Shown piece after piece: positions 1,927-36,617 of a stretch of 64,000 nucleotides of DNA. Under the pieces are notes generated by a model. It searched no databases, was not told the origin of the DNA, and saw only the letters and a program-made list of their open reading frames with translations. Within the stretch, counting starts at the first letter, position 1; each line of letters begins with the position of its first letter. Origin of the DNA: Escherichia coli (GTDB taxonomy: Bacteria; Pseudomonadota; Gammaproteobacteria; Enterobacterales; Enterobacteriaceae); NCBI RefSeq assembly GCF_048403405.1, contig NZ_CP183129.1, one strand, 5' to 3'. The position numbers were made by a program, and so were the translations under genes.

Positions 1927-2961
1927 ATGGCTTACTCTGTTCAAAAGTCGCGCCTGGCAAAGGTTGCGGGTGTTTCGCTTGTTTTATTACTCGCTGCCTG
2001 TAGTTCTGACTCACGCTATAAGCGTCAGGTCAGTGGTGATGAAGCCTACCTGGAAGCGGCACCGCTTGCGGAGCTTCATGCCCCGGCTGGAATGATTTTG
2101 CCGGTGACCTCCGGTGATTATGCAATCCCGGTGACCAACGGTAGTGGTGCTGTCGGTAAGGCGCTGGACATTCGTCCACCAGCCCAGCCGCTGGCACTGG
2201 TTTCTGGCGCGCGTACCCAGTTCACGGGCGATACCGCTTCATTGCTGGTGGAAAATGGTCGTGGCAATACTCTGTGGCCGCAGGTGGTTAGCGTGCTGCA
2301 GGCGAAAAACTACACCATCACCCAACGTGATGATGCTGGTCAGACACTGACCACCGATTGGGTACAATGGAACCGTCTGGACGAAGACGAGCAGTATCGT
2401 GGTCGTTATCAAATCTCTGTTAAGCCGCAGGGTTATCAGCAGGCGGTTACGGTTAAACTGCTGAACCTGGAACAGGCGGGCAAACTGGTTGCAGACGCGG
2501 CTTCCATGCAGCGTTACAGCACGGAGATGATGAACGTTATTTCCGCCGGTCTGGATAAATCTGCCACTGACGCCGCGAACGCTGCGCAAAATCGAGCCTC
2601 CACCACTATGGACGTACAAAGTGCAGCTGATGACACCGGTTTACCAATGCTGGTCGTACGCGGGCCGTTCAATGTGGTTTGGCAACGTCTGCCAGCGGCG
2701 CTGGAAAAAGTGGGCATGAAAGTGACCGACAGCACCCGTTCGCAGGGCAACATGGCCGTAACTTACAAGCCGCTGTCTGACAGCGACTGGCAGGAACTGG
2801 GCGCGAGCGATCCAGGCCTGGCATCCGGTGACTATAAACTGCAGGTTGGCGATTTAGATAACCGCAGCAGCCTACAGTTCATCGATCCGAAAGGTCATAC
2901 TCTGACTCAGAGTCAGAACGACGCGCTGGTAGCTGTCTTCCAGGCTGCGTTTAGCAAGTAA
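1927..2961 (+). CDS. bamC: outer-membrane lipoprotein BamC (NlpB), BAM complex component
   Basis: ATG 1927 preceded by AGGGAGA; [28 protein letters not shown] has a lipobox (LAAC); 344 aa; 16 bp after dapA, consistent with a dapA-bamC operon. Confidence 0.92.
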
Positions 2962-2967
2962 AAATAC

Positions 2968-2995
2968 AGGGCTGGAGTCATCCGGCCCTTTTTTC
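2968..2995 (+). terminator. intrinsic terminator after bamC
   Basis: GGGCTGGA-gtca-TCCGGCCC stem (one G-U pair) followed by TTTTTT, 7 bp after the bamC stop. Confidence 0.7.
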
Positions 2996-3004
2996 TGATA
3001 TGAT

Positions 3005-3020
3005 ACGCAAACGTGTGCGT
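3005..3020. promoter_or_regulatory. PurR operator-like box upstream of purC
   Basis: ACGCAAACGTGTGCGT, a near-perfect palindrome matching the pur-box consensus (ACGCAAAC/GTTTGCGT), about 155 bp upstream of the purC ATG. Confidence 0.6.
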
Positions 3021-3065
3021 CGGCAGAAAAATGCGATTTTAGCGGTAATTCGCACAAAATTTGTT

Positions 3066-3110
3066 TGTCGGACGTAGGTCGGATAAGGCGTTCTTGCCGC
3101 ATCTGACAAA
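3066..3110. repeat. REP-type palindromic unit
   Basis: GACGTAGGTCGGATAAGGCGTT...GCCGCATCTGAC matches the REP family motif (GCCGGATGCGGCG / CTTATCCGGCCTAC type) in the bamC-purC intergenic region. Confidence 0.6.
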
Positions 3111-3173
3111 ACATCCGGCACACCAGACAGCAAAAGATTTTAAAACGTTAATTCACACCCAGGAGTGATAAAG

Positions 3174-3887
3174 ATGCAAAAGCAAGCTGAGTTGTATCGT
3201 GGTAAAGCGAAAACCGTATACAGCACGGAAAACCCGGACCTGTTGGTGCTCGAATTCCGCAATGATACGTCAGCAGGGGATGGCGCGCGCATTGAGCAGT
3301 TTGATCGCAAAGGTATGGTGAACAACAAGTTCAACTACTTCATTATGAGCAAACTGGCTGAAGCGGGTATCCCGACTCAAATGGAGCGTCTGCTCTCCGA
3401 TACCGAATGTCTGGTCAAAAAGCTGGATATGGTGCCGGTTGAGTGTGTCGTGCGTAACCGTGCTGCTGGCTCTCTGGTGAAACGTCTTGGAATCGAAGAA
3501 GGTATTGAGCTGAACCCGCCGCTGTTCGATCTGTTCCTGAAAAACGACGCCATGCACGATCCGATGGTCAACGAATCTTACTGCGAAACCTTTGGCTGGG
3601 TGAGCAAAGAGAACCTGGCGCGTATGAAAGAGCTGACCTACAAAGCGAACGACGTGCTGAAAAAACTGTTCGATGATGCTGGTCTGATTTTGGTCGACTT
3701 TAAACTGGAGTTTGGCCTGTACAAAGGTGAAGTGGTACTGGGCGATGAGTTCTCCCCGGACGGCAGCCGCCTGTGGGACAAAGAAACGCTGGAGAAAATG
3801 GACAAAGACCGTTTCCGCCAGAGCCTCGGTGGCCTGATCGAGGCCTATGAAGCCGTCGCCCGCCGCCTGGGTGTACAGCTGGACTGA
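3174..3887 (+). CDS. purC: phosphoribosylaminoimidazole-succinocarboxamide synthase
   Basis: ATG 3174 after AGGAG; [39 protein letters not shown]... (237 aa) is SAICAR synthetase. The track start at 3165 is an upstream GTG. Confidence 0.95.
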
Positions 3888-4054
3888 TTTTTCTGCTCAT
3901 CATCTTGCCGTGCAGCTGGCACGGCAAGACAACCGCTCTCGGAAGATGTGCATTGAACGCTCATTCCTCCGCCATTTCATCCCGCTTTCCTGTGGTAATC
4001 TTCCTCTGAACCACCTACGATCATTTCTATAATGAATATATTGTTGAGGTATCT

Positions 4055-7021: not shown

Positions 7022-7720
7022 ATGAAACATGACCATTTTGTTGTTCAAAGCCCGGATAAACCTGCGCAACAGTTGTTACTGCTTTTCCACGGTGTCGGGG
7101 ATAACCCGGTGGCAATGGGGGAAATAGGTAGCTGGTTTGCACCGCTGTTTCCTGATGCGCTGGTGGTGAGTGTCGGTGGCGTGGAGCCGAGCGGTAATCC
7201 GGCGGGGCGTCAGTGGTTTTCGGTGCAGGGTATTACGGAAGATAATCGCCAGGCACGTGTGGATGCCATCATGCCGACGTTTATTGAAACGGTGCGCTAC
7301 TGGCAGAAACAGAGCGGAGTAGGGGCTAACGCCACGGCGCTAATCGGTTTCTCACAAGGCGCGATTATGGCGCTGGAGAGCATTAAAGCCGAACCGGGCC
7401 TTGCTTCGCGCGTCATTGCCTTCAACGGACGCTACGCGAGCCTGCCGGAAACCGCGTCTACAGCCACGACAATTCACCTGATTCATGGCGGTGAAGATCC
7501 TGTTATCGATCTGGCGCATGCGGTTGCGGCGCAGGAAGCGTTAATCAGTGCCGGTGGTGATGTGACGCTGGATATCGTGGAGGATTTAGGCCATGCGATC
7601 GACAATCGCAGTATGCAATTTGCCCTGGATCACTTGCGTTATACCATTCCGAAACATTATTTCGACGAAGCGCTAAGTGGCGGTAAGCCTGGCGATGATG
7701 ATGTGATTGAAATGATGTAA
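7022..7720 (+). CDS. ypfH: esterase/carboxylesterase YpfH (alpha/beta hydrolase)
   Basis: ATG 7022 gives MKHDHFVVQSPDKPAQQLLLLFHGVGDN...; nucleophile elbow GFSQG; the track start at 6998 is upstream in-frame. Confidence 0.85.
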   Translation: MKHDHFVVQSPDKPAQQLLLLFHGVGDNPVAMGEIGSWFAPLFPDALVVSVGGVEPSGNPAGRQWFSVQGITEDNRQARVDAIMPTFIETVRYWQKQSGVGANATALIGFSQGAIMALESIKAEPGLASRVIAFNGRYASLPETASTATTIHLIHGGEDPVIDLAHAVAAQEALISAGGDVTLDIVEDLGHAIDNRSMQFALDHLRYTIPKHYFDEALSGGKPGDDDVIEMM

Positions 7721-7724
7721 TAAT

Positions 7725-7795
7725 AGCCGGGTAGGCCTGATAAGACCGTATCAGGCATCATGGCCGGATGCGGCGTTAACGCCTTATCCGGCCAC
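7725..7795. repeat. two adjacent REP units (BIME-like) between convergent ypfH and ypfN
   Basis: GCCTGATAAGACCGTATCAGGC followed by GGCCGGATGCGGCGTTAACGCCTTATCCGGCC; both are imperfect palindromes of the REP family. Confidence 0.75.
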
Positions 7796-35255: not shown

Positions 35256-36617
35256 ATGAAACTAAAGACCACATTGTTCGGCAATGTATATCAGTTTAAG
35301 GATGTAAAAGAGGTGCTGGCTAAAGCCAACGAACTGCGTTCGGGGGATGTGCTGGCGGGCGTTGCAGCGGCAAGCTCACAAGAGCGCGTGGCGGCAAAGC
35401 AGGTGTTGTCGGAAATGACCGTAGCGGACATCCGCAATAATCCGGTGATTGCCTATGAAGATGACTGCGTGACGCGGCTGATTCAGGACGACGTTAACGA
35501 AACGGCCTACAACCAGATTAAAAACTGGAGCATCAGCGAACTGCGTGAGTATGTCCTGAGCGATGAAACCAGCGTGGACGACATTGCCTTTACCCGCAAA
35601 GGGCTGACCTCGGAAGTGGTTGCGGCGGTAGCGAAGATTTGCTCCAACGCGGACCTGATCTACGGCGCGAAGAAAATGCCGGTAATCAAAAAGGCCAATA
35701 CCACCATCGGTATTCCGGGCACCTTCAGCGCCCGTTTGCAGCCAAATGACACCCGTGACGACGTGCAAAGTATCGCTGCGCAAATCTACGAAGGGCTTTC
35801 CTTCGGGGTGGGCGATGCGGTGATCGGCGTCAACCCGGTGACGGACGACGTGGAAAACTTAAGCCGCGTGCTGGACACCATCTACGGCGTGATCGACAAA
35901 TTCAACATTCCGACCCAGGGCTGCGTGCTGGCGCACGTCACCACCCAGATTGAAGCGATCCGTCGTGGCGCACCGGGCGGGCTGATTTTCCAGAGTATCT
36001 GCGGCAGCGAAAAAGGGCTGAAAGAGTTTGGCGTGGAGCTGGCGATGCTCGATGAAGCACGCGCAGTGGGCGCGGAGTTCAACCGTATCGCCGGGGAAAA
36101 CTGCCTCTACTTCGAAACCGGACAAGGTTCGGCGCTGTCCGCTGGCGCTAACTTCGGCGCTGACCAGGTGACGATGGAAGCGCGTAACTATGGGCTGGCG
36201 CGTCATTACGATCCGTTTATCGTCAACACCGTGGTCGGTTTTATTGGGCCGGAGTATCTCTACAACGACCGCCAGATTATCCGCGCGGGCTTAGAAGATC
36301 ACTTTATGGGCAAGCTGAGCGGCATCTCTATGGGCTGTGACTGCTGCTACACCAACCACGCTGACGCTGACCAGAACCTCAACGAAAACCTGATGATCCT
36401 GCTCGCCACCGCAGGCTGTAACTACATCATGGGGATGCCGCTGGGTGATGACATCATGCTCAACTACCAGACTACGGCCTTCCACGACACCGCCACTGTG
36501 CGTCAGTTACTCAACCTGCGCCCGTCACCGGAGTTTGAACGCTGGCTGGAAAGCATGGGCATTATGGCAAACGGTCGCCTGACCAAACGGGCGGGCGATC
36601 CGTCACTGTTCTTCTGA
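35256..36617 (+). CDS. eutB: EutB, ethanolamine ammonia-lyase large subunit
   Basis: 453 aa, MKLKTTLFGNVYQFKDVKEVLAKANELRSGDVLAGVAA...; starts 11 bp after eutA. Confidence 0.93.
   Translation: MKLKTTLFGNVYQFKDVKEVLAKANELRSGDVLAGVAAASSQERVAAKQVLSEMTVADIRNNPVIAYEDDCVTRLIQDDVNETAYNQIKNWSISELREYVLSDETSVDDIAFTRKGLTSEVVAAVAKICSNADLIYGAKKMPVIKKANTTIGIPGTFSARLQPNDTRDDVQSIAAQIYEGLSFGVGDAVIGVNPVTDDVENLSRVLDTIYGVIDKFNIPTQGCVLAHVTTQIEAIRRGAPGGLIFQSICGSEKGLKEFGVELAMLDEARAVGAEFNRIAGENCLYFETGQGSALSAGANFGADQVTMEARNYGLARHYDPFIVNTVVGFIGPEYLYNDRQIIRAGLEDHFMGKLSGISMGCDCCYTNHADADQNLNENLMILLATAGCNYIMGMPLGDDIMLNYQTTAFHDTATVRQLLNLRPSPEFERWLESMGIMANGRLTKRAGDPSLFF

Follow-up and report, generated by a model that had tools for sequence, protein, structure and literature searches.

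The 16-bp palindrome at positions 3005–3020 of the window, which denotes the whole stretch of 64,000 nucleotides analyzed here, is almost certainly the operator through which PurR, the purine repressor of the LacI family, controls the purC promoter. Published data on the identical sequence establish the site itself and the transcription start site as well as an occupancy in vivo that depends on both purR and the purine supply, and nothing that we found argues against the PurR operator reading. The window was assigned to the E. coli chromosome with the gene order dapA-bamC-purC-ypfJ-tmcA; in the list of open reading frames the box is surrounded by gcvR on the minus strand and by dapA, bamC, purC, ypfJ and tmcA on the plus strand. 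Positions 2900–3260 were matched in 5,425 out of 5,426 complete E. coli genomes, the best matches being 100% identical, and in the best-matching genomes bamC and purC are annotated on either side of the match. The PurC protein is 100% identical to those of E. coli and E. albertii loci. The features on which the analysis rests are the following:

1927–2961, plus strand: coding sequence of bamC, the upstream gene (open reading frame list and RefSeq annotation of an identical E. coli locus, offset 101)

2968–2995, plus strand: intrinsic terminator of bamC with a 9-bp stem and a 4-nt loop (2968–2989) and a T-run to 2995 (terminator scan)

2996–3004, plus strand: extended -10 element TGaTATGAT (read from the sequence and placed relative to the published transcription start site)

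3005–3020, unstranded: PurR operator (pur box) ACGCAAACGTGTGCGT, -6 to +10 of purC (match, statistics, K-12 identity, ChIP-chip, IPOD-HR and conservation)

3011, plus strand: transcription start site of purC, an A at box position 7 (published start site transferred via alignment with K-12)

3011–3173, plus strand: 5' untranslated leader of purC, 163 nt (transcription start site and purC ATG at 3174)

3057–3135, plus strand: Escherichia-specific leader insertion with a REP-type repeat (alignment, repeat copies, Rfam and fold)

3161–3165, plus strand: purC Shine-Dalgarno sequence AGGAG, 8 nt before the ATG (read from the sequence)

3174–3887, plus strand: coding sequence of purC, the regulated gene, encoding SAICAR synthetase of 237 amino acids (open reading frame list and RefSeq annotation)

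The stop codon of bamC occupies 2959–2961 and the start codon of purC is the ATG at 3174. Downstream of purC, a hairpin with an 11-bp stem (TCTTGCCGTGC...GCACGGCAAGA) was observed at 3903–3929, 16 nt after the purC stop codon; a T-run is absent on both strands of this hairpin, which is therefore not a canonical intrinsic terminator. The purR gene itself lies outside the window (at 1.735 Mb in K-12, about 0.86 Mb from purC; PMC3159470).

The sequence ACGCAAACGTGTGCGT agrees with the perfect PurR palindrome ACGCAAACGTTTGCGT at 15 out of 16 positions. The sole departure is position 11, which is G in the box and T in the perfect palindrome, and between the halves of the box, ACGCAAAC and GTGTGCGT, seven of the eight pairs around the central CG at positions 8–9 are complementary. 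A first-pass annotation made from the letters alone had proposed an almost perfect inverted repeat of the PurR half-site within 3001–3025, situated about 155 bp upstream of the purC start and just downstream of the bamC terminator. This description holds in all its parts: the repeat is the 16-mer at 3005–3020, 153 nt separate its end from the ATG at 3174, and the hairpin at 2968–2989 is followed by a T-run that ends 9 nt before the box. When up to one mismatch to ACGCAAACGTTTGCGT was allowed, 3005–3020 was the only match on both strands of the 64-kb window, and none of 100 dinucleotide-preserving shuffles gave a match. With up to three mismatches, about 0.8 matches are expected by chance in 64 kb, so that the weight rests on the closeness of the match.

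For an independent score, a symmetrised position weight matrix was built from the 27 PurR ChIP-chip motifs other than that of purC in Table 1 of Cho et al. 2011 (PMC3159470). On this matrix the pur box scores 19.4 bits (training sites, 9.8–23.9 bits), and the runner-up in the window, with 11.5 bits, lies 8 bits below it. The runner-up is TGGCAAACGGTCGCCT at 36565–36580, and its score is in the range of the weak ChIP-chip sites. No PurR ChIP-chip peak was reported between the one at fabB-mnmC (2.439 Mb) and that at purC (2.595 Mb), a region that includes the remainder of the window (Cho et al. 2011, PMC3159470). The PurR operator reading of the first-pass annotation is borne out by the match to the consensus and the matrix score as well as by the identity with K-12 and the published ChIP-chip and purR-dependent IPOD-HR occupancy described below.

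The pur box is base-for-base identical to that of K-12 MG1655, and the alignment from the terminator to the box is likewise identical except for one position in the terminator loop. Ten differences distinguish the window strain from K-12 in the 212-bp bamC-purC spacer: besides the one in the terminator loop, the leader contains nine, including four inside the REP element; the bases immediately 3' of the box already differ. In K-12, the reverse complement of the window box, ACGCACACGTTTGCGT, is the motif given for the PurR ChIP-chip peak at purC (2,595,794–2,595,809 of U00096.2; PMC3159470), with an enrichment of 2.08 in the presence of adenine and 1.52 in its absence (Cho et al. 2011 Table 1, PMC3159470). 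The same study names purC among the PurR-repressed genes of the IMP pathway (PMC3159470). The purC promoter served as a demonstration case of Freddolino et al. 2021 (PMC8282354): in rich medium, and after correction for RNA polymerase, an IPOD-HR occupancy peak lies directly on the annotated purC PurR site, the peak is gone upon deletion of purR or in minimal medium, and RNA polymerase occupancy at the purC promoter is substantially higher in the purR deletion (PMC8282354). Meng et al. 1990 (cited in PMC3159470) name the regulation of purC by purR in their title. Published work already includes the experiments proposed in the first-pass annotation, and their results support control of purC by PurR. 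He et al. 1990 (J Bacteriol 172:4555) reportedly found that a purC-lacZ fusion is repressed in a PurR-dependent manner and that PurR binds the purC operator in vitro. Given the identity of the sequences, PurR occupancy and regulation would carry over from K-12 to the window strain.

The position of the box relative to the promoter was derived from the single purC transcription start site in Table S1 of Kim et al. 2012 (2,595,803 on the minus strand, 24 reads, 5' untranslated region of 163 nt; PMC3415461). The 51-mer listed there for purC ends ...CTGATATGATACGCAAA, its last base being the start site (PMC3415461), which corresponds to 3011 of the window. Relative to this start, the TG at 2996–2997 is located at -15/-14 and the hexamer TATGAT at 2999–3004 at -12 to -7. 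The pur box overlaps the promoter of a purine metabolism gene, spanning -6 to +10 of the K-12-mapped purC start site, and the extended -10 element directly abuts it on the upstream side. The site is therefore on the transcription start and is no distant upstream element, and the 153 nt that follow it up to the ATG belong to the 5' untranslated region. A consensus promoter scan of 2800–3400 called no sigma-70 promoter; the tool requires a -35 match, and there was no call because the purC -35 region, which falls within the bamC terminator hairpin, lacks a consensus match. The promoter assignment is based on one high-throughput start site (24 reads) together with the -10 sequence.

PurR most likely acts by steric exclusion of RNA polymerase, as judged from the position of the box over the start site (-6 to +10) and right against the extended -10 element. 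When purines are abundant, a PurR dimer loaded with the corepressor hypoxanthine or guanine would bind the box, cover the start site and abut the extended -10 element, so that RNA polymerase would be excluded or open-complex formation prevented and purC transcription would fall. When purines are scarce, corepressor-free PurR would leave the site and purC would be transcribed with its 163-nt leader. The steric block agrees with the rise in polymerase occupancy observed in the purR deletion (PMC8282354). We infer the details of the corepressor from established knowledge of PurR; hypoxanthine and guanine are restated as its corepressors in PMC10912719.

Compared with known systems, the box is the same element as the K-12 purC PurR operator in another strain, with the same 16 bp, the same -10 element and the same dapA-bamC-purC order, and no difference in the operator. 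Operators of the LacI/GalR family (lac O1 type) are likewise bound by a dimeric helix-turn-helix repressor at a short palindrome at or near the start site, where initiation is blocked. PurR binds only with its corepressor (hypoxanthine or guanine), whereas LacI is released by its inducer. A further difference from these systems is that purC has a single operator; in the PurR matrix scan no auxiliary operator above 11.5 bits was present anywhere in the window. The other E. coli PurR operators (purF, purMN, purL, purHD, purEK, purT and others) share with purC the 16-bp palindrome with a central CG, the consensus ACGNAAACGTTTGCNT and the overlap with the core promoter (PMC3159470). The purC box differs from them at position 11, where it has a G (read as C at position 6 of the opposite strand) that only gadX shares among the other 27 sites listed, and in its location at -6 to +10, while a typical PurR site lies between -35 and -10 (PMC3159470).

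Since similar half-sites occur in the LacI family, the main binder of the box might be another regulator, such as RbsR or CytR, with PurR in a secondary role. A central CG and A/T-rich flanks are common to LacI-family operators, and an effect of RbsR on purine genes has been reported. We nevertheless consider this very unlikely for purC. The GCAAAC/GTTTGC half-site fits the PurR matrix at 19.4 bits, deletion of purR alone abolishes the occupancy at the purC site (PMC8282354), and PurR ChIP-chip enriches the purC region, more so with adenine (PMC3159470); no result of our analysis supports RbsR or CytR at purC. It is also highly improbable that PurR at this box acts mainly as a roadblock to transcripts reading through from bamC and not in the control of purC initiation. 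The box begins only 9 nt past the T-run of the bamC terminator, and PurR is said to stop elongation at purB and purR (PMC3159470), but the mapped start site lies within the box with a good extended -10 element directly upstream, the bamC hairpin and T-run form a canonical terminator, and RNA polymerase occupancy at the promoter goes up when purR is deleted (PMC8282354). A minor roadblock effect on read-through could exist alongside the control of initiation by PurR.

That the palindrome has no regulatory role at all, having arisen by chance or belonging to the structure of the terminator or the REP element, has a probability close to zero. Although up to three mismatches would admit about 0.8 chance matches per 64 kb, the shuffles returned no match at up to one mismatch (0/100), and the box is conserved across genera whose flanking sequences diverge. 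It lies outside both the terminator hairpin (2968–2989) and the REP insertion (3057–3135), and a 16-nt loopless palindrome of which the right half alone is transcribed would form no stable hairpin. Both the ChIP-chip (PMC3159470) and the IPOD-HR data (PMC8282354) contradict a chance or purely structural origin. A role of the palindrome as an RNA hairpin was rejected as well: transcription starts at box position 7, there is no loop, and a role at the RNA level is unlikely because only the right half is transcribed.

Conservation of the PurR operator was followed within E. coli and across species. A stretch of 38 nt, running from the terminator's 3' arm to the end of the box and including the T-run and the -10 element, is identical in 5,389 out of 5,416 E. 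coli records. The cross-species sample comprised 80 purC loci, 65 of them from Enterobacterales, and 45 of these 65 loci have a box scoring at least 15 bits upstream of purC. In most of the loci with a box, it starts about 40 nt past the bamC stop codon, right after the bamC terminator. The exact sequence ACGCAAACGTGTGCGT is found in 25 Enterobacteriaceae loci with BamC identities down to 79%, and variant boxes scoring 16.8–22.2 bits occur in Erwiniaceae, Serratia, Providencia, Morganella and Edwardsiella. In an alignment of 16 species, the terminator and the ribosome-binding site aside, no block of the spacer other than the box is invariant. Across genera, the hairpin and T-run of the bamC terminator are kept, with compensating changes visible in the stem, and the GGAG of the purC ribosome-binding site is invariant.

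Among the 80 loci, no box was detected upstream of purC in Yersinia, Rahnella, Photorhabdus, Pectobacterium, Brenneria, Budvicia and Proteus, nor in Cedecea neteri, Mangrovibacter, some others and any locus from outside the Enterobacterales. The loci concerned are:

L020, L023, L024, L028, L029, L033, L036, L039, L041–L044, L046, L049, L051, L055–L057, L064 and L072: no PurR box in the bamC-purC spacer

In a study of Y. pestis PurR, purC receives no mention among the pur genes described as regulated. This distribution suggests that direct control of purC by PurR is restricted to certain lineages.

The sequence ACGCACACGTTTGCGT was observed at the corresponding position, downstream of the bamC terminator, in Enterobacter sp. 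BIGb0383 (L022:1401–1416) and Enterobacter sp. ENT03 (L065:1432–1447). In these two boxes the lone asymmetry is kept but mirrored with respect to E. coli, which needs two substitutions. The conserved G at position 11 could be under selection, either through the second role of the box as start site and first transcribed bases or through an effect on the affinity for PurR.

The register between the box and the -10 element was surveyed by taking the best -10-like hexamer within 30 nt on either side of the box in loci L003–L066, and all positions given here are predictions. TGaTATGAT is identical in Escherichia, Citrobacter, Pseudocitrobacter, strain RIT691 and Pluralibacter sp., and the predicted -10 element abuts the box on its upstream side in Escherichia and Citrobacter. 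In the Pantoea-like group, Mixta, Rosenbergiella and Tatumella it is also predicted upstream, with about 11 nt between the hexamer and the box. Downstream positions were predicted for Enterobacter, Pseudescherichia and Edwardsiella, where the element starts 2–4 nt after the box (TGgCATAAT, GATAAT, TATAAT), for Serratia (about 11 nt) and for Erwinia (about 21 nt).

The distance between the box and the ATG amounts to 49–114 nt in other Enterobacteriaceae (mostly 49–72 nt) and to up to 242 nt in other families. The 153 nt in Escherichia are explained by the REP-type insertion in the leader, an extra segment of about 100 nt (roughly 3057–3135) that is present in E. coli and E. albertii and absent from the 14 other Enterobacteriaceae aligned; Kluyvera has an unrelated insert. 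An imperfect direct repeat of 21–23 nt (GATTTTAGCGGTAATTCGCAC at 3036–3056 and GATTTTAAAACGTTAATTCACAC at 3136–3158) on either side of the insertion resembles a target-site duplication. Per E. coli genome, a median of 10 locations contain the segment, whose REP-type palindrome is predicted to fold as a hairpin at about 3078–3107. Rfam returned a weak match to the REP-derived family naRNA4 at 3077–3121 (28 bits, below the gathering score of 59.5); the match reflects the REP element, and an RNA gene was rejected here. The window contains a second REP core (GGATAAGGCGTTAACGCCGCATC) at 7767–7789 on the minus strand, just after an open reading frame that ends at 7720 and would be ypfH by gene order.

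In the minimum-free-energy fold, the 5' end of the leader, GUGUGCGUCG, which is the transcribed half of the operator, pairs with CCGGCACAC at 3114–3123. This pairing (3013–3123) encloses the REP hairpin, and its partner CCGGCACAC is inside the Escherichia-specific insertion; with a z-score of only -2.4, the predicted pairing may have arisen by chance. In view of this predicted pairing, the REP-type insertion could add control over the stability or structure of the purC mRNA. That the asymmetry at position 11 and the REP insertion carry a function beyond simple repression appears unlikely.

In two of the loci without a box, Cedecea neteri (L023) and Klebsiella sp. BIGb0407 (L028), the bamC-purC spacers are about 220 nt long and end in ...ATGCAGCTTGAAGTATGACGGGTA, just before the ribosome-binding site, in the last 45 nt or so ahead of the purC ATG. 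This end presumably resembles the end of an ERIC-type repeat, and if the likeness is true it would represent another mobile-repeat insertion in the bamC-purC spacer.

The pur box of purC is a textbook element that has been known for a long time and has belonged to the described E. coli pur regulon since 1990. It has been reconfirmed by ChIP-chip and IPOD-HR, so that the discovery value is small, and the result mainly shows that a real operator can be recognized from the raw sequence. The by-products are small illustrations of cis-regulatory evolution, none of them surprising: an operator is kept while its register to the predicted -10 element shifts between lineages, a REP insertion lengthens the leader in Escherichia, and several genera of the Enterobacterales are without the box.
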